Positions 1,136-60,557 of a stretch of 64,000 bases of DNA are shown here, piece by piece (the first letter of the stretch is position 1; every line of letters begins with the position of its first letter). The notes under the pieces were generated by a model, which was given only the letters and a program-made list of their open reading frames with translations, did no database searches and was not told the origin of the DNA. The position numbers and the translations under genes were made by a program. This DNA comes from Candidatus Omnitrophota bacterium (GTDB taxonomy: Bacteria; Omnitrophota; Gorgyraeia; JABMRN01; RBG-13-46-9), in assembly GCA_043817155.1 (NCBI GenBank), contig JBDRHE010000072.1, positions 1,345-65,344 of the forward strand. Direction: 5' to 3'.

Positions 1136-1247
1136 CCTCGTCTTTGCGAGGGACCGATAGATACTTAGCGTTCCGAAGCAATCTCAAACGAGCCTCGGAG
1201 AGATTGCTTCGGCACGCTCGAATATTACGGTGCCTCGCAAAGACGAG
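1136..1247. repeat. Family C palindromic element, copy C1 (short form lacking the GCCTGCCTGCCCG core).
   Basis: CCTCGTCTTTGCGAGG...GATTGCTTCGGCACGCTCGAATATTACGGTGCCTCGCAAAGACGAGG. The ends are inverted repeats of each other. Shared with copies at 9.5, 34.5, 41.3, 42.8 and 52.4 kb. Confidence 0.85.
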
Positions 1248-3825: not shown

Positions 3826-3882
3826 AAATCCCGTCCCGGGCTGGATTAAAGAGGTTTACCTAGACAGCCCGGGACGGGATTT
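3826..3882. repeat. Family D long hairpin, copy D1.
   Basis: AAATCCCGTCCCGGGCTG / loop GATTAAAGAGGTTTACCTAGA / CAGCCCGGGACGGGATTT, a perfect 18-bp stem. The loop sequence is conserved in copies at 35989, 36072 and 48484. Confidence 0.85.
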
Positions 3883-8032: not shown

Positions 8033-8117
8033 TTTCGCAAAAACGCGAAGAGTTCGTACGTAAATCACCTACCGACTTGATTTATCCCATTCTATTGTAT
8101 ATATTTGTTAAATGAGA

Positions 8118-8161
8118 CCATGAGTTACGACAACCTTTCAGGGTTGGCGTAACTCATATGG
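8118..8161. repeat. Family F hairpin, copy F1.
   Basis: CCATGAGTTACGACAACC-TTTCAGG-GTTGGCGTAACTCATATGG. Paralogous to the copy at 34381. Confidence 0.8.
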
Positions 8162-8227
8162 TCGAATTTATCCTGAGGCGCCGGAGGAGCCGAAGGATCT
8201 ATATCTCATTAAATACAGGTAATATAT

Positions 8228-9484
8228 ATGAAGAATGTAGCATGCGTAATAATGGGCGGAGGAAGAGGCACCAGGCTTTATCCCCTTACCAAAGAGAGGG
8301 CTAAACCCGCTGTCCCCGTAGCAGGCAAATACCGCCTGATAGATATACCCATCTCGAATTGCATAAATTCCGGGTTTAATAAGATCTACGTCCTTACTCA
8401 ATTCAATTCCGAATCGCTCAATAAACACATAGCCAGGACCTATGCCCTCGATGCTTTTTCAGCCGGCTTCGTAGAGATCATGGCAGCGGAACAGACGATG
8501 GATAACGCCGAGTGGTTTCAAGGCACAGCCGACGCCGTAAGGCAGTGCTTAAAACACATCACAGAACTTTTTATTAAGTATGTAATTATTCTCTCCGGCG
8601 ATCAGCTCTATAAGATGGACCTCAATGAGATGTTGAGTTTTCACAAGAGAGAGCAAGCCGATGTTACATTGGCTTGCAACCCGGTATTCGGTGCAAAGAA
8701 TATTGATGAATTTGGCATATTGAAACTTGGCGAGGGCAGCAGGGTAGTGAATCTTTTCGAAAAATCCAAGGATCCCACGCAGCTAAAAGAGGCGGCCATC
8801 AGGATAGACGACAAAGAGGCGCTTCTGGTATCCATGGGTATATACATCTTTAACAAAGAGGTGCTGATCGAACTTTTAAAAGATAACAGCAAGGTGGATT
8901 TCGCAAAGGAGATCATACCCGACTCCTTTGCCCGCAAAGTAACAAAGGCCTATATTTATAAGGGATACTGGCGCGACATAGGTTCCATAAAGAACTTTTA
9001 TGATGAAAATCTTGTGCTTACAGAGCCAATACCTCCCATAAACTTCTTCGATGAGAGCTGGCCGACATTTACAAGGCCCAGATACCTTCCGCCGTCAAAG
9101 ATAAGCGATAGCAGGATATCGAGATCCGTTTTTTCGGAGGGGTGCATAATTCAGTCGGCTACTATAAAGCATTCCGTGATTGGGTTAAGGAGCAGGATCG
9201 AGGAGAAGTCACTGGTAGAAGATTCCATCATCATGGGATGCGATTACTACGAGTCCCTGGACGATATAATGAAAGCCAGAAAAGAGGGCCGTCCCTATAT
9301 GGGGATCGGGATGAATTGCGTTATAAAAAAAGCGATACTGGATAAGAACGTCAAGATCGGGGATAATTCGAGGATCGTAAATGAAAAGAAAGTAAAAGAG
9401 TTCGAGGGAGAGAATTACTCCATAAAAGACGGCATAGTGATTGTCCATAAGAACGCCACTCTGGCACCGGGGACCGTGATCTAA
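8228..9484 (+). CDS. glgC: Glucose-1-phosphate adenylyltransferase.
   Basis: N-terminal GGGRGTRLYPLT(KER)AKPAVP nucleotidyltransferase motif and a C-terminal left-handed beta-helix. Confidence 0.85.
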   Translation: MKNVACVIMGGGRGTRLYPLTKERAKPAVPVAGKYRLIDIPISNCINSGFNKIYVLTQFNSESLNKHIARTYALDAFSAGFVEIMAAEQTMDNAEWFQGTADAVRQCLKHITELFIKYVIILSGDQLYKMDLNEMLSFHKREQADVTLACNPVFGAKNIDEFGILKLGEGSRVVNLFEKSKDPTQLKEAAIRIDDKEALLVSMGIYIFNKEVLIELLKDNSKVDFAKEIIPDSFARKVTKAYIYKGYWRDIGSIKNFYDENLVLTEPIPPINFFDESWPTFTRPRYLPPSKISDSRISRSVFSEGCIIQSATIKHSVIGLRSRIEEKSLVEDSIIMGCDYYESLDDIMKARKEGRPYMGIGMNCVIKKAILDKNVKIGDNSRIVNEKKVKEFEGENYSIKDGIVIVHKNATLAPGTVI

Positions 9485-9555
9485 TATACAGGTGAGCATA
9501 GATGGGATACGCAGATGGGCGCAGATGGAAGACACAGATTGGCACAGATAAATAA

Positions 9556-9804
9556 CTCGTCTTTGCGAGGTGCCGTAAAGAGCTAGCGCACCGAAACCCC
9601 GCCGCATGCTTCGCATTGCGGGATCCCGCCATACGAAAGTAACGGCGGGACAATCTCTTACTTAACGGTTTGTCATCCCCGCGAAAGCGGGGATCCAGAG
9701 TAGCCTCGTAGAGAGTCTATCCATGGATTCCCGCTTGCGCGGGAATGACAGAGAAGAGATTGCTTCGGCACGTTCGAATATTCCGGTGCCTCGCAAAGAC
9801 GAAG
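9556..9804. repeat. Composite element: a family C copy (C2) split by a nested family B copy (B1, 9671-9750).
   Basis: C left end CTCGTCTTTGCGAGGTGCCGTAAAGAGCTAGCGCACCGAA at 9556-9598. B1 is TGTCATCCCCGCGAAAGCGGGGATCCAG...CTGGATTCCCGCTTGCGCGGGAATGACA. C right end GAGATTGCTTCGGCACGTTCGAATATTCCGGTGCCTCGCAAAGACGAAG at 9755-9804. Confidence 0.85.
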
Positions 9805-9846
9805 TGTAGCTTGTATGCCAATCTGTATTTTTAATAAATTAATCGT

Positions 9847-10941
9847 ATGAACATACTGCACTTGCTTCCCGCCCTTGAGTCGGGAGGCGTCGAGACCGGC
9901 ACGATCGATCTGGCGCTCTCACTTAAAAGACTGGGCCATACCGTTATTGTAGTTTCTAACGGCGGTCAACTTGTCAAAAGCCTGGAAGATAATAAGATAT
10001 CCCATATCAAGCTTCCGGTTCACAAAAAGTCACCATCCGCCATCCTGCTTATACCAAAGATCGTGAGCATCCTTAGATCGCACAACATAGATATCGTCCA
10101 TGCGAAAAGCCGTGTCCCGGCGTGGATAGGCTATTTATCCTGCAAAATATCCGGCACCCCTTTTGTCACAAGCTGCCACGGTTTTTATTCGAAACACTTC
10201 TTCAGTTCCGTTATGGGCCGAGGCCAGCGCGTGATGGTGATTTCAAGGAGCATAGAGATGAGGATGATAGAAGATTTCAAGGTGCCTGCGAGCCGGATCC
10301 GTCTTGTGTATAGAGGCGTGGACCTTTCTAAGTACCCTTACCAGCCTGATAAATATGAAAGCGAAAAGATCTCCTTTATCGTGATCAACATAGGCAGGCT
10401 GACGCCGCTCAAGGGCCAGCACAAATTTATAAAAGCGATGAAGCGTGTCGCCGAAGAGATAAGATCGGTCGAGGCCTGGATCGTGGGCGCGCCGGAAAGA
10501 GGTAAAGAACACTATGTAGAGAGACTGCACAGGGCGGTGCTGGAGCTCGGTATGGAGGGGAGTATAAAGTTTTTAGGTTTACGAAAGGATATCCCCGAGC
10601 TCTTAAAGAAGAGTGATTGCCTGGTGCTCTCTACGAATGTTCCCGAGGGATTCGGAAGGACTGTAGTTGAGGCGGGCGCTATAGGTACGGCTGTATGCGC
10701 ATCTGACGTAGGCGGCCTTAGGGAGATCATAACAGACGGTGTTTCGGGGATACTCTTTCCGCCGGATGACGAAGTTAAGATGGCAGAGGCCATCATAAGA
10801 ATGCTCAGCAGCCGGGATTTCTCGAAAGGCTGTTCAGAGAATCTGCGAAGAAGGGTGGAGAACGATTTTACACTTGAACGTATGACCAAAGAGACGCTTT
10901 CGGTTTACGAAGAGGTCGTGAAGGCCAGAGTACCCGCCTAA
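9847..10941 (+). CDS. Glycosyltransferase family 4 (GT1-type fold).
   Basis: 364 aa. C-terminal EGFG...E motif typical of retaining GT4 enzymes. Confidence 0.7.
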   Translation: MNILHLLPALESGGVETGTIDLALSLKRLGHTVIVVSNGGQLVKSLEDNKISHIKLPVHKKSPSAILLIPKIVSILRSHNIDIVHAKSRVPAWIGYLSCKISGTPFVTSCHGFYSKHFFSSVMGRGQRVMVISRSIEMRMIEDFKVPASRIRLVYRGVDLSKYPYQPDKYESEKISFIVINIGRLTPLKGQHKFIKAMKRVAEEIRSVEAWIVGAPERGKEHYVERLHRAVLELGMEGSIKFLGLRKDIPELLKKSDCLVLSTNVPEGFGRTVVEAGAIGTAVCASDVGGLREIITDGVSGILFPPDDEVKMAEAIIRMLSSRDFSKGCSENLRRRVENDFTLERMTKETLSVYEEVVKARVPA

Positions 10942-10980: not shown

Positions 10981-11715
10981 ATGCCCATGCAGAAAGAGTC
11001 AAATAGTGGAGCCCCCCGGACTTTAGTCCTGGGCTCCCTCCATCAAAAACACATATCACCTGCCGCAGTCTGCGGACGGATTAAAATAGCGCCAAGTCTT
11101 CTGGCGGCCGATTTCGGATGCCTCGCTTCAGAGATTGATAAAGCTGAAAAAGCCGGGGCGGATTCGTTGCACGTCGATGTGATGGACGGGCACTTTGTGC
11201 CGAATATAACCCTTGGACCATTCATAGTAAAAGCGATGAGGAGAGTGACGAAGCTTCCATTGATCTCCCACCTTATGATCGAAAGCCCGGAGAAGTATAT
11301 TAAAGAATTCGTCGCGGCAGGAAGCGACATGATCATCTTCCATATAGAGACTACAAAGAGGCCAAAGATGCTTATAGAAAAGATAAAGCGGACTAAAACG
11401 AAGGTAGGGGTTTCGATCAAGCCCAATACGAAGGTCCGCGCCATAAGATCTCTTCTTCCGCTTCTCGATGAGGTGCTTGTTATGACCGTGGAGCCCGGAT
11501 TCGGTGGTCAGAAGTTTATGCATAAACAGCTTCCGAAGATACGGGATATCAGGGAGTCTTTCGCCGGAGACATAGCTGTCGACGGCGGGATAAACCAGGA
11601 GACCGCGGAGCTCGCTGTTTCAAAAGGCGCCAATATACTGATAGCCGGAACGTATCTCTTCGGTGCCAGGAACATGAAGAGCCTCATCCGCAAACTCAAA
11701 TCGATCAAACCCTAA
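10981..11715 (+). CDS. rpe: Ribulose-phosphate 3-epimerase.
   Basis: KIAPSLLAADF, HVDVMDGHFVPN and EPGFGGQKF motifs. The only ATGs (10981, 10987) lie upstream of and read through family A copy A2, giving a ~28-aa N-terminal extension. Confidence 0.8.
   Translation: MPMQKESNSGAPRTLVLGSLHQKHISPAAVCGRIKIAPSLLAADFGCLASEIDKAEKAGADSLHVDVMDGHFVPNITLGPFIVKAMRRVTKLPLISHLMIESPEKYIKEFVAAGSDMIIFHIETTKRPKMLIEKIKRTKTKVGVSIKPNTKVRAIRSLLPLLDEVLVMTVEPGFGGQKFMHKQLPKIRDIRESFAGDIAVDGGINQETAELAVSKGANILIAGTYLFGARNMKSLIRKLKSIKP
11006..11060. repeat. Family A element, partial copy A2 (hairpin 3 plus spacer), in reverse orientation.
   Basis: GTGGAGCCCCCCGGACTTTAGTCCTGGGCTCCCTCCATCAAAAACACATATCACC. Confidence 0.8.
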
Positions 11716-12521
11716 TTGGGGACGTTTCAACTTTCCTCAACCTCGTTCAAGCAAGCTAGCTAGAGAGGCCAAGCGCATTTTTACAAATTCCATCATAATC
11801 TGGTTTAACTCCGATTGCTCGTGTGGGGCAATTCTTCCGCTTGCCCCGTTCCAAATCGCCCTATAAAGGCATTTGGATAAAGAAGATGTTCTTTGCGCAG
11901 AATACTTTTGCAATAGCTAAAAGTTCTAGTGGGCGATTTGTAACGGGGCAAGCCGCCGGTCTATTGCAGTTAGCTGTTGGTAATTCGCTAGCCAGCGCAG
12001 GCCAAGCGGTCCGGGAGGCTTAAGCATAAAAGATTATGCAGAGATTCTCTCTTCTTGCCTCTTCATAAGGTGATAGCCGGTCTTTAAGGAAATGCCGTAA
12101 GCCAAGACATACGTATGCCTGAACTACCGACTCTCACCTTGTAAAGAGACAAAGAGAGAATATGCGCCTCCCGAACCGCTTGGCCCGCGCAAGTTTTGAG
12201 ACGATTCTTTGCACTCAAGTTGCTCCAGCTTAGGTTTATGGGCGAGAGATAGGGTGGTTATCGGAGAATTACCTTGGAGTAATCTTTTGCCTGCACTGGA
12301 GCCCCTTAGCCTGGGCTTACTTTGCAAAGTTAAGAAATGGCGGAATCATTACCCGAAACCCCCTATTTTTTGCTTTTTCGGTTATATCTTAATCAGGTTG
12401 CAAATGCTTCTTTTAAGAACGAACGAACTTTATGGTTGACATTTATGGGGTAGTCAGCTTTAATAGTCGTCGAGGTTTAAGAAGATGAGGAATCTATATG
12501 TTATTTCTATCACTTAAATAT

Positions 12522-12624
12522 GAGTAAGTAGAGAGTAGCAAGTAGCGAGCCCCGTTAGAAATTTACAATTTCTAACGGGGCGAGAAAGACTCTCTCTACT
12601 CTCTACCTGCTACTCGCTACTTAC
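12522..12624. repeat. Long imperfect palindrome (~100 bp, 14-bp perfect core stem) immediately upstream of mnmG.
   Basis: GAGTAAGTAGAGAGTAGCAAGTAGCGAGCCCCGTTAGAAATT-TAC-AATTTCTAACGGGGCGAGAAAGACTCTCTACTCTCTACCTGCTACTCGCTACTTAC. Confidence 0.75.
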
Positions 12625-12651
12625 TGGCATTTGTAAAAAAGAATATAATAC

Positions 12652-14532: not shown

Positions 14533-14592
14533 ATTACAAATCACAAATTCCCTGCCTGCTGCTGCAAGCGGGCAGGCAAATAACAAACATCT

Positions 14593-14682
14593 TGTCATTC
14601 CCGCGCAAGCGGGAATCCAGACGGAAATGACAAACATATTAGGAAGATAGACTTCTGGATCCCCGCTTTCGCGGGGATGACA
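14593..14682. repeat. Family B element with 27-bp terminal inverted repeats, copy B2.
   Basis: TGTCATTCCCGCGCAAGCGGGAATCCAG...CTGGATCCCCGCTTTCGCGGGGATGACA. Confidence 0.85.
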
Positions 14683-16282: not shown

Positions 16283-16320
16283 AAGCTCTTAATAGGTCCG
16301 TTCAACAGTTTGTCATTCCC

Positions 16321-16407
16321 GCGAAAGCGGGAATCCAGTCATGCCACAATGCATTAGAAAGAATACACTTCTGGATCCCCGCTTGCGCGGGGATGACATG
16401 ACTTTAT
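16321..16407. repeat. Family B element, copy B3.
   Basis: TGTCATTCCCGCGAAAGCGGGAATCCAG...CTGGATCCCCGCTTGCGCGGGGATGACA. Confidence 0.85.
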
Positions 16408-18182: not shown

Positions 18183-18287
18183 CACGGTGCACCAGAGCAC
18201 CAGCGCACAGGAGCACCAGTATGAGATTTCTAATTTGGTGCACTTGTGTTCTTGCGCACTTGTGCTCCCGTAATAAAACGAGCAGAT

Positions 18288-18845: not shown

Positions 18846-18973
18846 GATGATATGGATTCAGCGAGTAGCTTGTTAGAGCATTAGCTTATTAGCTTTCTAG
18901 GATAAGAATGCTTTCTAAGAAGCTAGAAAGCTAAAGCTCTAGTAAGCTATCCGCTATATGCTAGTAATTAGAT

Positions 18974-21380: not shown

Positions 21381-21428
21381 CAATTCCAGGCCCCGGGCCT
21401 TTTTCATCAGGCCCGGGGCCTGGAATTG
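21381..21428. repeat. Family D hairpin, copy D2.
   Basis: CAATTCCAGGCCCCGGGCC-TTTTTCATCA-GGCCCGGGGCCTGGAATTG, directly after the fhs stop. No downstream T-tract. Confidence 0.8.
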
Positions 21429-21449
21429 GTGGTGACCTGACAGGTAGAA

Positions 21450-23946: not shown

Positions 23947-24026
23947 TGTCATCCCCGCGCAAGCGGGGATCCAGAGCGGACACGTAGATAGTTAATCCAT
24001 GGATTCCCGCTTTCGCGGGAATGACA
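23947..24026. repeat. Family B element, copy B4.
   Basis: TGTCATCCCCGCGCAAGCGGGGATCCAG...ATGGATTCCCGCTTTCGCGGGAATGACA. Its right end supplies ATG codons at 24021 and 24026. Confidence 0.85.
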
Positions 24027-27282: not shown

Positions 27283-27393
27283 GAATTTCGCAAAGCGAAA
27301 TTCATTGCTTGGCGAGATGCTAAGCATCTCACCAAAGGTGATATGTGTTTTTGATGGAGGGAGCCCACCGGACTTTAGCCCGGGGGGCTCCAC
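27283..27393. repeat. Family A three-hairpin element, full copy A3.
   Basis: GAATTTCGCAAAGCGAAATTC / TTGGCGAGATGCTAAGCATCTCACCAA / GGTGATATGTGTTTTTGATGG / GGAGCCCACCGGACTTTAGCCCGGGGGGCTCCAC. Confidence 0.85.
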
Positions 27394-27419
27394 GAAAGAG
27401 AAGCAAGGGGGAGCGGTCT

Positions 27420-29785: not shown

Positions 29786-29885
29786 TGTCATTCCCGGACC
29801 GCTGCTGCGGTCTAAACTCCAGCGGGAATCCATGGATGCACTCTCTACGAGTCCGCTCTGGATCCCCGCTTTCGCGGGGATGACA
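29786..29885. repeat. Family B element, copy B5 (long-left-arm subtype).
   Basis: TGTCATTCCCGGACCGCTGCTGCGGTCTAAACTCCAGCGGGAATCCATGG...CTGGATCCCCGCTTTCGCGGGGATGACA. Same subtype as copy B8. Confidence 0.85.
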
Positions 29886-30666: not shown

Positions 30667-30819
30667 GATCCCTCGGCTATACCTGGGGATTAATTACGAT
30701 CATTCAAACCTGCCTGCCTATCAGCAAGTCGGGCAGGCAGGGAAGAGAAACAGGGAAGATGAACTTATGAAAATTAGAAATTTTCATAAGTTCAGATCTC
30801 ATTAAAGGGAGAAAAACTC

Positions 30820-33800: not shown

Positions 33801-34374
33801 GCCAAACGATAAGGCGCAAATCCTAAAAGATGCTATTGACACCGATTACTTTTTGGACATTGTTTCAAAGGTTAGAACAATAAAGAATAACGGGAGATTT
33901 GATTATGTGTACAATTTAACCCTTTCCGATACCCATAGTTATTATGCGAATGGAATGCATATTGCAAATTGCGGATGTTTTGAATGTATAATCGCGATTC
34001 TGCCTGAAGCGAACGGATTCATGGTGGTGAACAGGGAGTTTCCCGGGCTTACGCCTGCGGGGATGAAATTCTCTACGCTCGCAGGGTCCGTTGGCGGCGG
34101 AAATCAGACTCCCGGATTCATGGGTGTAGGAAGGCTTTATATAATCAGTAAAAAGTTCATATCCGCTGATGGCGGATTAAAGAGGCTGGTCTGGATGCCG
34201 AAGGAACTTAAAAGTGCTCTCGGTGACAGGCTAAAGAAGAGGTGCGCGGATCTCGGCATGCCGGATCTATTTGATAAGATAGCCGATGAGACTAACGCAA
34301 CTGAATCGGAAGCATTGGTAAAATATTTAACCGAGAAGGGCCATCCGGCCATTACGATGGAACCGTTAATGTGA
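30820..34374 (+). CDS. acsB: Acetyl-CoA synthase catalytic subunit (AcsB/CdhC) interrupted by an in-frame intein.
   Basis: 1184 aa, against about 730 aa for AcsB. The extein ends ...SYPETSC and resumes CGCFECIIAILPE (the A-cluster Cys-Gly-Cys Ni site). The intervening 458 aa has intein blocks. Confidence 0.9.
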   Translation: MSRIVAQSAIRGAKKLVQEAEGLLGKAIEEKGKEQILEFPETAFFMPMANALLGAEVKTLNEALPIIKEAKSLLHEDPTNDLWLPYLGSALDSGIAALLAEEIILAIRYIYGKEPQADCNGFFTDTILRTLGIQLVDGRMPGFAAILGAAPDNKTAVDIVRDFQKRNIMTFVGSSSNGKSIIDQLKEEKIEMGWDTYIVPYGRDTVSALYPLNWAIRGALTFGGIKAGNAKKCLMYCKERVFAFGLTLGEVDDVKYATGAGAINMGFPIIADTEIPEIRPTGICTYEHLVKELDHKKIVQSCIEVRGVKVKLSEIPIPVAYSAAFEGERVRREQMYAQFGGKFSHAFEYVRSKSLDEVEDDKIEVVGPEIDEMTEGGAYPLGIVVDVAGRKMQHDFEPILERQVHTFLNEAMGIFHMGQRSMCWMRISKDAQKKGFKLRHLGVILHAQFHDIYSKIVDKVQITIYTKKEDVDRIMPEAEKVYEERDERMAGMTDESIDTFYSCTLCQSFAPNHLCIIKPERLGLCGAYSWLDAKACYELNPSGPNQPIKKGECLDPVRGEWKNINDFIYKSSNKTLEKFHGYSIMSYPETSCCTGDTEVLIGGKIVKIGDFIDLHRGGEEYARFKAATLSGGKTVEEDIVAMQRFTAPEELIRIETKSGAELVLTKDHKVFVDRQEGEAQVRADEIRDEDRIVSLKRLNLKEELPEISEIFGGRLNEDISNEIINKDLFYILGLLASDGSICRVGRREYKINFINTEPALINKYKRLAKKLFPKKNCKARIKNKNLSTIKGRIINSQKVCYDCYSNNSVLGMIAEYFGIKVGIKGVWNLAQLINLPKDFIGSFLAGIFDGDGSIRLRRYYSKWDIPEAYLCIGDKKAASHLQMLLRRFGITSFVKKSNSVYKVTLYGTNLIKFLDIAPIVHPKKKKISERVKKLSKANKGPDRAQGEVLPFGVGKILAEIPETKTILSPSTLFYYRTFRSRPVLSNVNKVIDGLPNDKAQILKDAIDTDYFLDIVSKVRTIKNNGRFDYVYNLTLSDTHSYYANGMHIANCGCFECIIAILPEANGFMVVNREFPGLTPAGMKFSTLAGSVGGGNQTPGFMGVGRLYIISKKFISADGGLKRLVWMPKELKSALGDRLKKRCADLGMPDLFDKIADETNATESEALVKYLTEKGHPAITMEPLM
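32596..33969 (+). mobile_element. Intein (458 aa) with a LAGLIDADG homing endonuclease domain, inserted in acsB.
   Basis: Block A CTGDTEVLIGG. Block B LTKDHKVFV. Two LAGLIDADG motifs (LGLLASDGSI, LAGIFDGDGSI). Block G YYANGMHIAN, followed by the +1 Cys of the CGCFEC motif. Confidence 0.85.
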
Positions 34375-34380
34375 AATGAA

Positions 34381-34424
34381 GCCATAAGTTACGACAACCC
34401 AGTGGTTGTCGTAACTTATATGGC
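34381..34424. repeat. Family F hairpin, copy F2, directly after the acsB stop.
   Basis: GCCATAAGTTACGACAACC-CAGT-GGTTGTCGTAACTTATATGGC. Confidence 0.8.
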
Positions 34425-34478
34425 TGAATTTCATCCCGAGGCACTGAAAGTGCCGAGGGATCTCAAACTTAAAACACT

Positions 34479-34613
34479 TGTCATTCCCGCGCAAGCGGGA
34501 ATCCATGGATGTACTCTCGACGAGTCCGCTCTGGATCCCCGCTTACGCGGGGATGACAAAAGATGAGATTGCTTCGGCGCGCTAAGAAGAATAAGGCGCC
34601 TCGCAAAGACGAT
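34479..34613. repeat. Family B copy B6 (34479-34558) abutting a family C right-end fragment C3 (34563-34613).
   Basis: B6: TGTCATTCCCGCGCAAGCGGGAATCCATGG...CTGGATCCCCGCTTACGCGGGGATGACA. C3: GAGATTGCTTCGGCGCGC...GGCGCCTCGCAAAGACGATG. Confidence 0.8.
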
Positions 34614-35988: not shown

Positions 35989-36128
35989 AATTCCAGTCCC
36001 GGCCTGGATTATAGAGGTTTGCCTAGACAGGCCGGGACTGGAATGCAGATCGCGTACGGATAGAATCAGGACATTCAGGTCCCGGGCTTTCTAGGACAAC
36101 CTCTTTTATCAAGCCCGGGACCTGAATG
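35989..36128. repeat. Two tandem family D hairpins (D3a 35989-36045, D3b 36072-36128).
   Basis: CAATTCCAGTCCCGGCCTG-GATTATAGAGGTTTGCCTAGA-CAGGCCGGGACTGGAATG and CATTCAGGTCCCGGGCTT-TCTAGGACAACCTCTTTTATC-AAGCCCGGGACCTGAATG. The second loop is the reverse complement of the first loop type. Confidence 0.85.
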
Positions 36129-38124: not shown

Positions 38125-38214
38125 GTCATTCCCGTGTTTTCCCACATGTCATCCCCGCGTAAGCGGGGATCCAGACGAGGCCCACCATGGATTCCCGCTT
38201 CCGCGGGAATGACA
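38125..38214. repeat. Family B element, copy B7, with a partial duplicated left end.
   Basis: GTGTCATTCCCGTGTTTTCCCACA + TGTCATCCCCGCGTAAGCGGGGATCCAG...ATGGATTCCCGCTTCCGCGGGAATGACA. Confidence 0.85.
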
Positions 38215-41312: not shown

Positions 41313-41487
41313 CTCGTCTTTGCGAGGTGCCGTAAAAAGCTAGCGCACCGAAGCAATCTCCGACTAGCTCGAATGAGATTGCCTGCCTGCCCGCCAAAGC
41401 TTTTAAATGGCAGGCGGGCCTGCCAGTATATTTCGGGCAGGCAGGCTTCGGCACACTCGAATCTTACGGTGCCTCGCAAAGACGAAG
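41313..41487. repeat. Family C element, full copy C4.
   Basis: CTCGTCTTTGCGAGGTGCCGTAAAAAGCTAGCGCACCGAAGCAATCTC...GATTGCCTGCCTGCCCG...GGCAGGCGGGCC...CGGGCAGGCAGGCTTCGGCACACTCGAATCTTACGGTGCCTCGCAAAGACGAAG. Confidence 0.85.
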
Positions 41488-42844: not shown

Positions 42845-42984
42845 CCTCGTCTTTGCGAGGTGCCGTAACATAGTTAGCGCACCGAAGCAATCTCAGACTA
42901 GCTCGAATGAGATTGCCTGCCTGCCCGTATATTTCGGGCAGGCAGGCTTCGGCACGCTCGAATTTTACGGTGCCTCGCAAAGAC
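42845..42984. repeat. Family C element, copy C5.
   Basis: CCTCGTCTTTGCGAGGTGCCGTAACATAGTTAGCGCACCGAAGCAATCTCAGACTAGCTCGAATGAGATTGCCTGCCTGCCCGTATATTTCGGGCAGGCAGGCTTCGGCACGCTCGAATTTTACGGTGCCTCGCAAAGAC. Confidence 0.85.
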
Positions 42985-44187: not shown

Positions 44188-44276
44188 TGTCATTCCCGGA
44201 CCGATCTTGCGGTCTAAACTCCAGCGGGAATCCATAGTGGGGCTCGCCTGGATCCCCGCTTCCGCGGGGATGACAT
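44188..44276. repeat. Family B element, copy B8 (long-left-arm subtype).
   Basis: TGTCATTCCCGGACCGATCTTGCGGTCTAAACTCCAGCGGGAATCCATAG...CTGGATCCCCGCTTCCGCGGGGATGACA. Confidence 0.85.
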
Positions 44277-45390: not shown

Positions 45391-45393
45391 TAA

Positions 45394-45471
45394 TTGATTA
45401 CACTGATTTATTATTGATTACACGGATTGGGGAATTGATTACACTGATTTAATATTGATTACACTGATTGA
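45394..45471 (+). repeat. Tandem direct-repeat array E1: four copies of TTGATTACAC(T/G)GATT with a 20-21-bp period.
   Basis: Units at 45394, 45414, 45435 and 45455. Begins 4 nt after the hldD stop and ends 18 nt before the ATG of the flavodoxin-like gene. Confidence 0.85.
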
Positions 45472-48404: not shown

Positions 48405-48539
48405 GCCCCGGGCTTAGATTATGAAGGTTGTTGTGAAAAGCCCGGGGCTTAAATGCAGACTAAAGTAGATGCGGACAAAGGCCATTCAGGTCCCGGGCTT
48501 TCTTGGTAAACCACTTTATTCAAGCCCGGGACCTGAATG
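48398..48539. repeat. Two tandem family D hairpins (D4a 48398-48455, overlapping the bioF stop codon; D4b 48484-48539).
   Basis: CATTTAAGCCCCGGGCTT-AGATTATGAAGGTTGTTGTGAAA-AGCCCGGGGCTTAAATG and CATTCAGGTCCCGGGCTT-TCTTGGTAAACCACTTTATTC-AAGCCCGGGACCTGAATG. Confidence 0.85.
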
Positions 48540-49386: not shown

Positions 49387-49455
49387 TGTCATCCCCGCGC
49401 AAGCGGGGATCCAGGCGAGAGTTTCGTCTGGATTCCCGCTTCCGCGGAAATGACA
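49387..49455. repeat. Family B element, copy B9.
   Basis: TGTCATCCCCGCGCAAGCGGGGATCCAGG...CTGGATTCCCGCTTCCGCGGAAATGACA. Confidence 0.85.
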
Positions 49456-52276: not shown

Positions 52277-52431
52277 CAGAAGTTTTTTTTCTGCTACAAT
52301 TGAAATTGAATTTCAATGTCATCCTCCTGCGCCATAGCAGAAATTCACTGTATCTATGCTCCGGAGGATGCTATCCACCGAAGCCAAACACGGTAAGTAT
52401 TTGGCGAAGGTGGATCAATAGACGCCACCGT

Positions 52432-52627
52432 CTCGTCTTTGCGAGGTGCCGTGATTTACTGAGCGCACCGAAGCAATCTCAAACGAGCTCGAATGAGATT
52501 GCCTGCCTGCCAGTATATTTCGGGCAGGCAGGCTTCGGCACGCTCGAATATTCCGGTGCCTCGCAAAGACAGAGTAAAATGAGACTGCTTCGGCACACTC
52601 CGAATTTTTTGGTATCTCGCAATGATG
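52432..52627. repeat. Family C element, copy C6, plus a degenerate extra right-end fragment.
   Basis: CTCGTCTTTGCGAGGTGCCGTGATTTACTGAGCGCACCGAAGCAATCTC...GATTGCCTGCCTGCCAGTATATTTCGGGCAGGCAGGCTTCGGCACGCTCGAATATTCCGGTGCCTCGCAAAGAC, then GAGACTGCTTCGGCACACTCCGAAT. Confidence 0.85.
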
Positions 52628-53075: not shown

Positions 53076-53133
53076 TGATTACACAGATTATCAGGGATTG
53101 ATTACACAGACTTTAGACGGATTACACAGATTA
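53076..53133 (+). repeat. Tandem direct-repeat array E2: three copies of (T)GATTACACAGA(T/C)T with a 21-22-bp period.
   Basis: Units at 53076, 53098 and 53119. Begins 1 nt after the fur stop and ends 17 nt before the feoB ATG. The first unit reads GATAATGATTACACAGATTATC, with Fur-box-like GATAAT/ATTATC arms. Confidence 0.85.
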
Positions 53134-53149
53134 TAGGTTAGGTGTTCGG

Positions 53150-56807: not shown

Positions 56808-56828
56808 GGGAGTTTTTTAACCGGTAAT

Positions 56829-56866
56829 CATTCCAACCCCGGGCTGAACAACCCGGGGCTGGAATG
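56829..56866. repeat. Family D short hairpin, copy D5.
   Basis: CATTCCAACCCCGGG-CTGAACAA-CCCGGGGCTGGAATG. Confidence 0.75.
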
Positions 56867-59894: not shown

Positions 59895-60503
59895 TTGGAA
59901 GAGCAATTATCAGAAAACCATAAAAGATATTTAGAGAGAATAAATTTTTACAAAGATTTTGGTTATGATGTTGAAGAAGAGAGAAAATTTATCTTAGAAA
60001 AGTCATGCCCTCTCTATGGAGATATAGTAGAGGTAGGAACGGGCAAGGGATATTTCACTGTTGAACTTGCCAAAGAAGGATACAACTTTACCACTATAGA
60101 TATTTCAGATGAAGAGCAGGAATTTGCCAGACTTAATATAAGATATTTCGGCCTTGAAAAACTTGTAGATTTTAGAATAGAGAACGCCGAGTACTTGAGT
60201 TTTGATAATTCCAGCTTCGATATAATATTTTCTATTAATACAATTCATCATCTTACCAATCCGGCTAAGGTAACAGAAGAGCTGATAAGGATAGTTACTC
60301 TTGAAGGAAAGATAATTTTAAGCGATTTCACCGAAGACGGTTTAAAAATTATAAATAAAATTCATGCAACTGAAGGACGAGTGCATGAAGCCGGTCAAAC
60401 AAGTTTATCAGAAGTAGGTAATTATTTAGAGCAGAGAAGATTCGGTATGCAAAAGCATAAAAGCAGGTTTCAGGAGATACTTATCGCATATCGCCAAAGG
60501 TGA
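59895..60503 (+). CDS. Class I SAM-dependent methyltransferase.
   Basis: VEVGTGKGYFT motif I. TTG start. Its stop codon lies inside repeat A4. Confidence 0.65.
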   Translation: MEEQLSENHKRYLERINFYKDFGYDVEEERKFILEKSCPLYGDIVEVGTGKGYFTVELAKEGYNFTTIDISDEEQEFARLNIRYFGLEKLVDFRIENAEYLSFDNSSFDIIFSINTIHHLTNPAKVTEELIRIVTLEGKIILSDFTEDGLKIINKIHATEGRVHEAGQTSLSEVGNYLEQRRFGMQKHKSRFQEILIAYRQR

Positions 60504-60552
60504 TATGTGTTTTTGATGGAGGGGGGCCCGGACTTTAGTCCGGGGGCTCCAC
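60491..60552. repeat. Family A element, partial copy A4 (hairpin 3 plus spacer).
   Basis: TCGCCAAAGGTGATATGTGTTTTTGATGGAGGGGGGCCCGGACTTTAGTCCGGGGGCTCCAC. Ends 5 nt before the ATG of the MinD-like gene. Confidence 0.8.
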
Positions 60553-60557
60553 TAGTT

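Follow-up and report, generated by a model that had tools for sequence, protein, structure and literature searches.

Short palindromic modules, interleaved in variable order and orientation, make up the bacterial interspersed mosaic elements (BIMEs) of enterobacteria and the intergenic mosaic elements of Neisseria. Repetitive extragenic palindromes (REPs) are also found as inverted pairs, the REPINs of Bertels and Rainey in 2011, in which the pair is said to be the copying unit and is reportedly mobilised with REP-associated tyrosine transposases (RAYTs). REPs that open with a CGTC tag were defined by Di Nocera, De Gregorio and Rocco, who include the Neisseria repeat dRS3 in their family CGTC-1 (Di Nocera et al. 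2013; PMC3733652). RAYT genes go with REPs tagged GTAG, whereas CGTC REPs have no associated transposase (PMC3733652). Recently, the Neisseria repeat NTS (CGTCATTCCCGCGMAVGCGGGAATCYRG), which includes dRS3, and the Ssn-related motifs (SRMs) were found to associate with ssn genes (Chenal et al. 2025; PMC11893778). Ssn of Neisseria, a GIY-YIG enzyme of 94 residues, binds the hairpin as single-stranded DNA only and cuts a few bases to its 5' side, and ssn is carried by 81% of genomes in the class with more than 200 SRMs (PMC11893778). Here, a 64-kb stretch of an Omnitrophota metagenome-assembled genome (MAG), referred to as the window, is compared with these systems. Two repeat families of an initial annotation, B and C, form a nested mosaic in the 362-nt gap between glgC (8228-9484) and the gene of a GT4 glycosyltransferase (9847-10941). 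Taken as a whole, the locus is probably a mosaic of CGTC-tagged REPs whose pairs multiplied in this lineage, with an Ssn-type enzyme proposed by analogy.

The unit arm shared by both families begins at its 5' side with a (C/T)GTC tag. The stem that follows opens with A/T pairs, turns in a loop and returns, and right after the return comes a C, which in B is part of a CCA tail. B arms follow the consensus TGTC-AT[T/C]CCCGC-GNAA-GCGGG[A/G]AT-CCA, each arm folding on itself, and this pattern has 16 matches in the window and 0 in shuffled sequence. The TGTC tag opens 16/16 complete B arms and likewise two arms with loop insertions. One stem pair is either T..A or C..G, always compensated inside the same arm, and pairing across the two arms of one B pair would yield mismatches. 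B is arranged as an inverted pair with the tags outward, one arm having the ATTCCCGC stem (T-type) and the other the ATCCCCGC stem (C-type). This combination was found in 9/9 B pairs, for which random pairing of equally common arms gives a probability of about 0.002, and the pairs lie on both strands (4 vs 5). C arms follow the consensus (T)CGTCTTTGC-GA-GGYRC-loop-GYRCC-GAA-GCAATCTC, with a stem in two parts (4+5 bp) and a loop of 13-15 nt; the C end pattern has 11 matches in the window vs 0.44 in shuffles. The tag is TCGTC in nine of the 12 C arms, TGTC in two and a degenerate CATC in one, within-arm pairing holds in 98% of cells, and the stem covaries at two positions on both sides (GGTGC/GCACC, GGCAC/GTGCC, GGCGC/GCGCC). 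The inventory of C amounts to five pairs and two single arms (34565-34612 and 52581-52627). All five pairs join a left-type and a right-type arm in identical order, and all are oriented as the genes, nearly every one of which is on the + strand from about 3.9 kb onward. Because compensation is internal to the arm and unlike arms are constantly paired, folding is a property of the single arm, whereas copying involved the pair of unlike arms as one unit. A framing of B and C as elements with terminal repeats overlooks that each end is an independent CGTC-tagged REP hairpin of a superfamily already described. On sequence grounds, B and C are pairs of CGTC-tagged hairpin repeats (REP/SRM), not transposons with terminal inverted repeats.

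At the first site (9485-9846), four levels of inverted repeats are concentric: an outer 16-nt pair, the C arms, the B arms and a small hairpin in each B arm. An alignment of all C copies places the arms of one C pair, C2, at 9557-9595 and 9756-9802, bracketing the 80-nt B element at 9671-9750. The left part is homologous to the left arms of C1 and C4-C6 (39/40 identical to C4), and the right part to the right arms of the same pairs, with 29 columns invariant over six sequences. Two other copies, B at 23947 and, once reverse-complemented, B at 34479, are 89-91% identical to the enclosed B. The B element inside a C element that the initial annotation had described at 9556-9804 is thereby confirmed, since both flanks align with C arms (9557-9802) around a complete B; a lack of homology between the flanks and full C copies, which would speak against nesting, was looked for, and the flanks proved homologous. 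The 72 bp said to separate the left C half from B are indeed a separation, measured here as 75 nt (9596-9670), but they are not anonymous: a 55-nt insert comes first, the left C arm then ends with its remaining 7 nt, and a 13-nt spacer follows. These 7 nt, CAATCTC, pair perfectly together with the next 2 nt with 9754-9762, and extended complementarity (CAATCTCTT/AAGAGATTG) adjoins the C2 spacer. Read in arm orientation, the 55-nt insert is at most 1 nt off the place at which the right arms of C4-C6 carry a nested hairpin, and no further copies of the insert were found in the window or in the retrieved loci. C4-C6 had been put forward as the plain C reference; their arms are homologous to those of C2, but with the nested right-arm hairpin they are less simple than C1.

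The published SRM pattern, HGTCWYN(0-2)YYVSBRHN(0-5)WNVSBRGN(0-2)RNCYNB (PMC11893778), was applied to the window with 100 dinucleotide shuffles as a control. Over the 64 kb it matches 15 times, the shuffles giving 0.14 on average, and B arms account for 14/15. Two arms lie at most one mismatch from the N. meningitidis NTS consensus, and the bases reported as critical for SsnA, GTC 5' of the palindrome and C just 3' of it, are conserved in B and C arms alike. If 15 matches in 64 kb are typical of the genome, it would hold well above 200 SRMs, and repeat density in the window resembles that of genomes of which 81% carry ssn. B arms also agree with CGTC-1 REPs, which have an unpaired CGTC tag or its variants TGTC and CCTC, an AT-opening stem of 8-9 bp (8 bp in B), a loop of 4-5 nt (4 nt in B) and a CCA tail, and which mostly form inverted pairs, often of unlike arms, sited between same-strand genes (PMC3733652). 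DNA inserted between pair partners has been described, as have mosaic clusters in Neisseria and pairs within other palindromes in Halothiobacillus neapolitanus (PMC3733652). The present case differs in its host, Omnitrophota being outside the five phyla given in that study, and in its enclosing palindrome, here a pair of second-class tagged hairpins. The two-part stem and the 13-15-nt loop set C arms apart from CGTC-1 and place them outside all four described CGTC families (8-9 bp stem, 4-5 nt loop). Intergenic clusters of several interleaved palindromic modules are a likeness to BIMEs and to the Neisseria mosaic elements; in those the hairpin classes and hosts are others, and the modules here are concentric, not merely side by side.

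Hairpins of both designs adjoin ssn genes in other genomes. A GIY-YIG probe led to genes annotated as GIY-YIG on plasmids and chromosomes, that of N. gonorrhoeae among them, and a profile built from those proteins led to 80 metagenomic loci. A tag and hairpin lie in the flanks of ssn at 76/80 of these loci, with GTCATTCCCGCG occurring 57 times and GTCATCCCCGCG 10 times (GTCAT[T/C]CCCGCG, jointly 67). B-design hairpins also flank ssn in L071, L065 and L157. In Azospirillum (L071), ssn is located between sufB and sufC with a B-like inverted pair on each side, and such pairs also flank ssn in Neisseria; in L157, an arm(+)-ssn-arm(-) cassette stands between resB and ccsA. Both cassettes are thus located within operons. 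C-design arms (GTCATTGCGAG..GAAGCAATCC) directly adjoin ssn in three loci (L139, L150, L138). Hairpins with CCCGAGG/CCTGAGG stems, comparable to those at 34431 and 8168, adjoin it in Spirosoma (L070, which shares the design of the hairpin at 34431-34464) and Methylobacterium, and a related form, TCTGAG/CCTGAA, does so in Planktothrix. A scan of the genome collection with the C end pattern returned at least 59 loci, a number to be set against about 70 chance matches expected from 17 specified bases; the MAG of the window is not among the matches listed. About one quarter of these loci hold a complete C-like pair (e.g. L004, L006, L011, L013, L020, L055), and full C-like pairs occur, among the matches listed, in Sphingomonadaceae, Legionellaceae and two other Omnitrophota MAGs. 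Since C-design arms flank ssn and C-like pairs recur elsewhere, family C is a further class of the same hairpin superfamily, though missed by the published pattern; the Ssn-repeat system therefore probably extends further than has been estimated. Among the 120 best relatives (P0121-P0240) of one low-GC Ssn, those that carry a name are assigned only to Nitrospirota, Chloroflexi, Desantisbacteria, Syntrophales and Acidobacteriota, and many of the 120 are on contigs of less than 2 kb. Within one subgroup, Ssn proteins from MAGs of these five names share 74-88% identity, a spread which points to horizontal transfer. In L139 (Ga0181519_10003122), about 18 tandem 18-nt units stand just 3' of ssn (~545-851), each made of a tag and half a stem (GCCGTCATC(A/G)(T/C)GAGCTCA), and resemble serially truncated arms.

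The mosaic is also a gain relative to related genomes. Three syntenic relatives (GlgC 73-75% identical; next relatives at most 76%) keep the order PhoU-GlgC-GT4-Rpe-transaldolase-GidA, and in these only 4-7 nt separate the glgC stop from the GT4 start, vs 362 nt in the window. The extra length was therefore added between two genes that are tightly linked, and no B or C arms were found in about 70 kb of the relatives' sequence. This supports the earlier view of acquired sequences as opposed to conserved regulatory motifs. With about 30 arms in 64 kb, placed between tightly linked genes and absent from the syntenic relatives, the window documents a strong lineage-specific expansion.

The first site is most simply read as a C pair into whose centre a B pair was inserted. 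It is preferred because C2 keeps the canonical arm types and their order, as in the four uninterrupted pairs, together with the extended complementarity; two single arms landing around B would explain C2 less well. Pairs, not single arms, may have multiplied in this Omnitrophota lineage and been placed in intergenic DNA. A B pair would have entered the central spacer of a pre-existing C pair at 9557-9802, and a further palindrome would have divided the left C arm, the whole lying within another short inverted repeat; this is the order of insertions that we infer. By analogy with Neisseria, an Ssn-type enzyme encoded elsewhere in the genome may act on these copies and spread them. Such an enzyme would bind the hairpin only when single-stranded and cut on the 5' side of the tag, a few bases away. 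Extended to an inverted pair, a step of our own, this would give one cut per outer edge on opposite strands, so that the two cuts mark off the pair as one unit. Where hairpin pairs already exist, the single-stranded loops at their centre would be tolerated, possibly favoured, landing sites.

Nesting is found at three recurrent positions. The first is the pair centre, occupied by B in C2 and by B between the hairpin at 34431 and the C arm at 34565. The second is the GAA|GCAAT junction of the C arm, which holds the 55-nt insert in C2 and a CCTGCCTGCC..GGCAGGCAGG hairpin (CCTGCC) in C4-C6. The third is the loop of the B T-type arm, at 29786 and 44188. The presence of the CCTGCC hairpin at the same position in three C copies that are 88-96% identical fits copying of the C pair and this hairpin as a composite; the hairpin also occurs alone (14550-14578, 30709-30741), and its copy in C4 holds 33 nt more. 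An identical 25-nt hairpin (GACCG..CGGTC, TAAACTCCA) replaces the loop in the B arms at 29787-29829 and 44189-44231, and these two copies are one sub-lineage, not two separate events. Loop extensions are tolerated by the Ssn enzyme (PMC11893778). The three recurrent positions are compatible with preferential integration into hairpin pairs. A bolder proposal, which can be put forward only tentatively and is rather doubtful, holds that CGTC-tagged hairpin pairs are mobile units which prefer to integrate where other pairs are single-stranded, at the centre or in the loops, and so build up concentric stacks of hairpins, with at least two Ssn specificities (B-type and C-type) in one genome. If true, this would be the first sequence-level evidence of transposition and target choice in Ssn-associated repeats.

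The second B/C site (34373-34612) is a chain in which a long hairpin is followed by a tagged one with ATCTC at its end; B comes 14 nt further on, and a C arm starting with GAGATTGC lies 6 nt beyond B. Both B/C sites share this geometry (an arm ending in ATCTC, 13-14 nt, B, 5-6 nt, an arm with GAGATTGC), with B in opposite orientation. The junction that the initial annotation placed at 34479-34613 exists, B and C lying 6 nt apart (34479-34612); the supposed right-end fragment of C is a complete arm. Two ideas derived from this recurrence found no support. B had been suspected of preferentially targeting C, but the two share 2/33 intergenic regions vs 1.6 expected (hypergeometric P=0.53), and packing at 5-15 nt is general. 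A B/C composite moving as a unit is opposed by the inversion of B between the sites, by the two B copies, each of which is as close to solitary B as to the other, and by differing C arm stem types.

Several points weigh against the proposed history and the role given to Ssn. In the 64-kb window, no homolog of ssn, a single-domain GIY-YIG gene of type cd10448, was detected in any frame (hmmsearch, E<=10), and a regular expression and the profile found no GIY-YIG gene in the window or in loci L001-L064. Among the 120 best relatives of the low-GC Ssn, none is named as an Omnitrophota protein. Unlike the B arms, C arms do not match the SRM pattern, their loop and inner stem being too long, yet their design flanks ssn in the three loci given above. 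Removal of B would leave an 18-nt spacer (TTACTTAACGGTT+GAGAA) that gives no clean alignment to the spacer of intact C pairs (14 nt), and there is no duplication; the suggested reconstruction of an uninterrupted C was attempted and failed. The relatives are distant and leave room for other numbers and orders of events. Finally, the demonstrated activity of Ssn is the cutting of DNA, its role in repeat spread being a hypothesis of the authors themselves, whose study treats cleavage and transformation, not repeat nesting or spread (PMC11893778).

The alternative that survives best does away with ordered nesting. Recombination, gene conversion or template switching among modules piling up in a few tolerated intergenic sites could yield the same mosaic, with B inside C as just one arrangement among many, and such an origin, improbable but deserving attention, is what co-occurrence of B and C at chance would suggest. 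At least five kinds of modules appear in many combinations, usually 5-15 nt apart throughout the clusters; a different hairpin takes the left-C-arm position at the second site, the insertion point at the first lacks a clean reconstruction, and mixed clusters of this type are described for Neisseria (PMC3733652). What tips the balance towards a single insertion into an intact C is that C2 shows just what this predicts: canonical arm types, their order and the CAATCTCTT/AAGAGATTG complementarity.

Strict REPINs, whose REP pairs owe their mobility to a RAYT, a tyrosine transposase of the IS200/IS605 type, are an unlikely identity for B and C, for all that the architecture is identical. Two inverted REP hairpins with a spacer, the pair as copying unit, many intergenic copies, no target duplication and single arms that are likely remnants are common to both. 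The tag separates them, being GTAG in REPINs and (C/T)GTC here, and so does the gene found beside the hairpins, since those of the B and C designs flank ssn, encoding a GIY-YIG nuclease, in other genomes. CGTC REPs moreover have no associated transposase (PMC3733652); no search for a RAYT in the MAG was made.

B and C might also be ordinary miniature inverted-repeat transposable elements (MITEs) with terminal inverted repeats, moved by a DDE transposase, B having transposed into C. Inverted ends, many intergenic copies and a site that is empty in relatives are all expected of MITEs, but this identity is very unlikely. The target-site duplication anticipated by the initial annotation was looked for at the B insertion without success and is absent at 9/9 B and 5/5 C pairs. 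What would be terminal repeats are hairpins in their own right, with changes compensated within each arm; arms also occur alone, and as hairpins they flank GIY-YIG genes in other phyla. The ssn profile search of the window came back empty, and no screen of the window for transposase families was made. Least credible of all is a functional RNA (stabiliser, processing site or terminator) kept by selection in the glgC-glycosyltransferase transcript. The position between same-strand genes, the folding of a 262-nt stretch at -73 kcal/mol (z=-10 vs shuffles), the gene-wise orientation of five/five C pairs and the known effect of REPs on mRNA stability (PMC3733652) would suit it, but the hairpins are absent at the same operon junction in three relatives, B is found in both orientations, near-identical hairpins stand beside a nuclease gene in unrelated phyla, Rfam (gathering cut-off, then E<=1) and a tRNA scan gave no match and a scan for promoter-like or terminator-like sites none either, and any effect on the transcript may be a by-product only.

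For annotation, it follows that such repeats in Omnitrophota and similar uncultured lineages should not be entered as novel transposons or regulatory RNAs. Translated arms give rise to spurious small open reading frames, and the repeats may contribute to fragmented metagenome assemblies, as the many Ssn homologs on short contigs might illustrate. The repeat superfamily has been known since 2013 and was linked to a nuclease in 2025; Omnitrophota is a new phylum for it. That unlike arms are always paired and that nesting recurs at certain positions are testable clues to how the repeats multiply.

Table 1. Modules of the two B/C sites and the other B and C pairs of the window (positions in the window; tag-first readings of - strand arms are given on that strand).
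Feature	Position	Strand	Description
Outer inverted repeat, left arm	9529-9544		AAGACACAGATTGGCA; 16 nt; 88% complementary to 9816-9831; within CAGAT(G/T)G run 9501-9549
C2 left arm, first part	9557-9595	+	Tag TCGTC, then TTGC-GA-GGTGC ... GCACC-GAA
Self-complementary insert	9596-9650		55 nt; two CCCGC..GCGGG hairpins; interrupts left C arm after CCGAA, before CAATCTC
C2 left arm, last 7 nt	9651-9657	+	CAATCTC
Spacer, C left arm to B	9658-9670		TTACTTAACGGTT
B left arm, C-type hairpin	9671-9698	+	TGTC-ATCCCCGC-GAAA-GCGGGGAT-CCAG; fits published SRM pattern
B internal spacer	9699-9722		24 nt; homologous to spacers of B at 23947, 29786, 34479
B right arm, T-type hairpin	9723-9750	-	TGTC-ATTCCCGC-GCAA-GCGGGAAT-CCAT
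Spacer, B to C right arm	9751-9755		GAGAA
C2 right arm	9756-9802	-	TCGTCTTTGCGAGGCACCGGAATATTCGAACGTGCCGAAGCAATCTC
Outer inverted repeat, right arm	9816-9831		TGCCAATCTGTATTTT; 16 nt
Long hairpin	34373-34432		Directly past stop codon of upstream gene; second copy 8114-8163
Related tagged hairpin in left-C-arm position	34431-34464	+	TCAT-CCCGAGGCAC-TGAAA-GTGCCGAGGG-ATCTC; variant at 8168-8201
C-associated B pair	34479-34558	-	Inverted vs B at 9671; T-type arm left, C-type arm right
Single complete C arm	34565-34612	-	Third stem type (GGCGC/GCGCC); 6 nt from B
Solitary B pair	14593-14682	-	90 nt
Solitary B pair	16311-16398	-	88 nt
Solitary B pair	23947-24026	+	80 nt; 89% identical to B at 9671
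B pair	29786-29885	-	T-type arm with 25-nt hairpin in loop
Solitary B pair	38147-38214	+	68 nt; half-arm remnants either side
B pair	44188-44275	-	Loop insertion as at 29786
Solitary B pair	49387-49455	+	69 nt
C1, simplest C pair	1138-1246	+	109 nt; two arms + 14-nt spacer
C4	41314-41485	+	C pair; CCTGCCTGCC..GGCAGGCAGG hairpin (41382-41445) nested in right arm
C5	42847-42986	+	C pair; same hairpin (42916-42946)
C6	52433-52572	+	C pair; same hairpin (52502-52532); then degenerate single C arm 52581-52627

Other repeats share the intergenic DNA of the window. C6 has beside it a TGTC-tagged long-loop hairpin (52317-52371; TGTCATCCTCC..GGAGGATGC) and the degenerate single C arm at 52581-52627 (CATCATTGCGAG..), so that this intergenic region has at least four tagged arms. 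A two-module unit, in which the long hairpin precedes a tagged one whose stem is CC(C/T)GAGG, occurs twice (8114-8201 and 34373-34464), each time 3' of a stop codon. Imperfect short tandem motifs, with units CAGATGG, GCACCAG, TAGCTT and GATTACAC(T/A)GATT, are located in intergenic gaps at 9501-9549, 18183-18245, 18846-18973, 45391-45467 and 53076-53149, and the outer inverted repeat around C2 comes from the first of these runs. A repeat family of about 110 nt (GCATCTCGCCAAAGGTGATAT..GGCCCCGGACTTTAATCCGGGG) with internal hairpins is found at 2436-2549, 27283-27397, 60486-60554 and 11004-11061, some copies adjoining or overlapping predicted gene starts. A further hairpin family, built on (C)ATTCCAG/CAGG-(N)CCCGGGC stems, is found at 3829-3879, 21381-21436, 35992-36042, 36068-36128, 48405-48450, 48479-48539 and 56827-56865, several of its members being paired with a GATTAnAGAGGTT loop.

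Integron attC sites and CRISPR repeats were both rejected by inspection, the former for having no R/L core sites and the latter for having no regular spacing. A loose scan of the whole window for a tag plus hairpin was too noisy and its results were left unused, and a literature search with peptides translated from the arms (RFARND etc.) returned nothing relevant. Downstream of the mosaic, the 936 nt between rpe and gidA (11716-12651) hold no open reading frame of at least 80 aa. The three syntenic relatives have the transaldolase gene at this place, and tblastn with the transaldolase of a relative found no remnant in the stretch, which closes with a long hairpin (~12530-12640).

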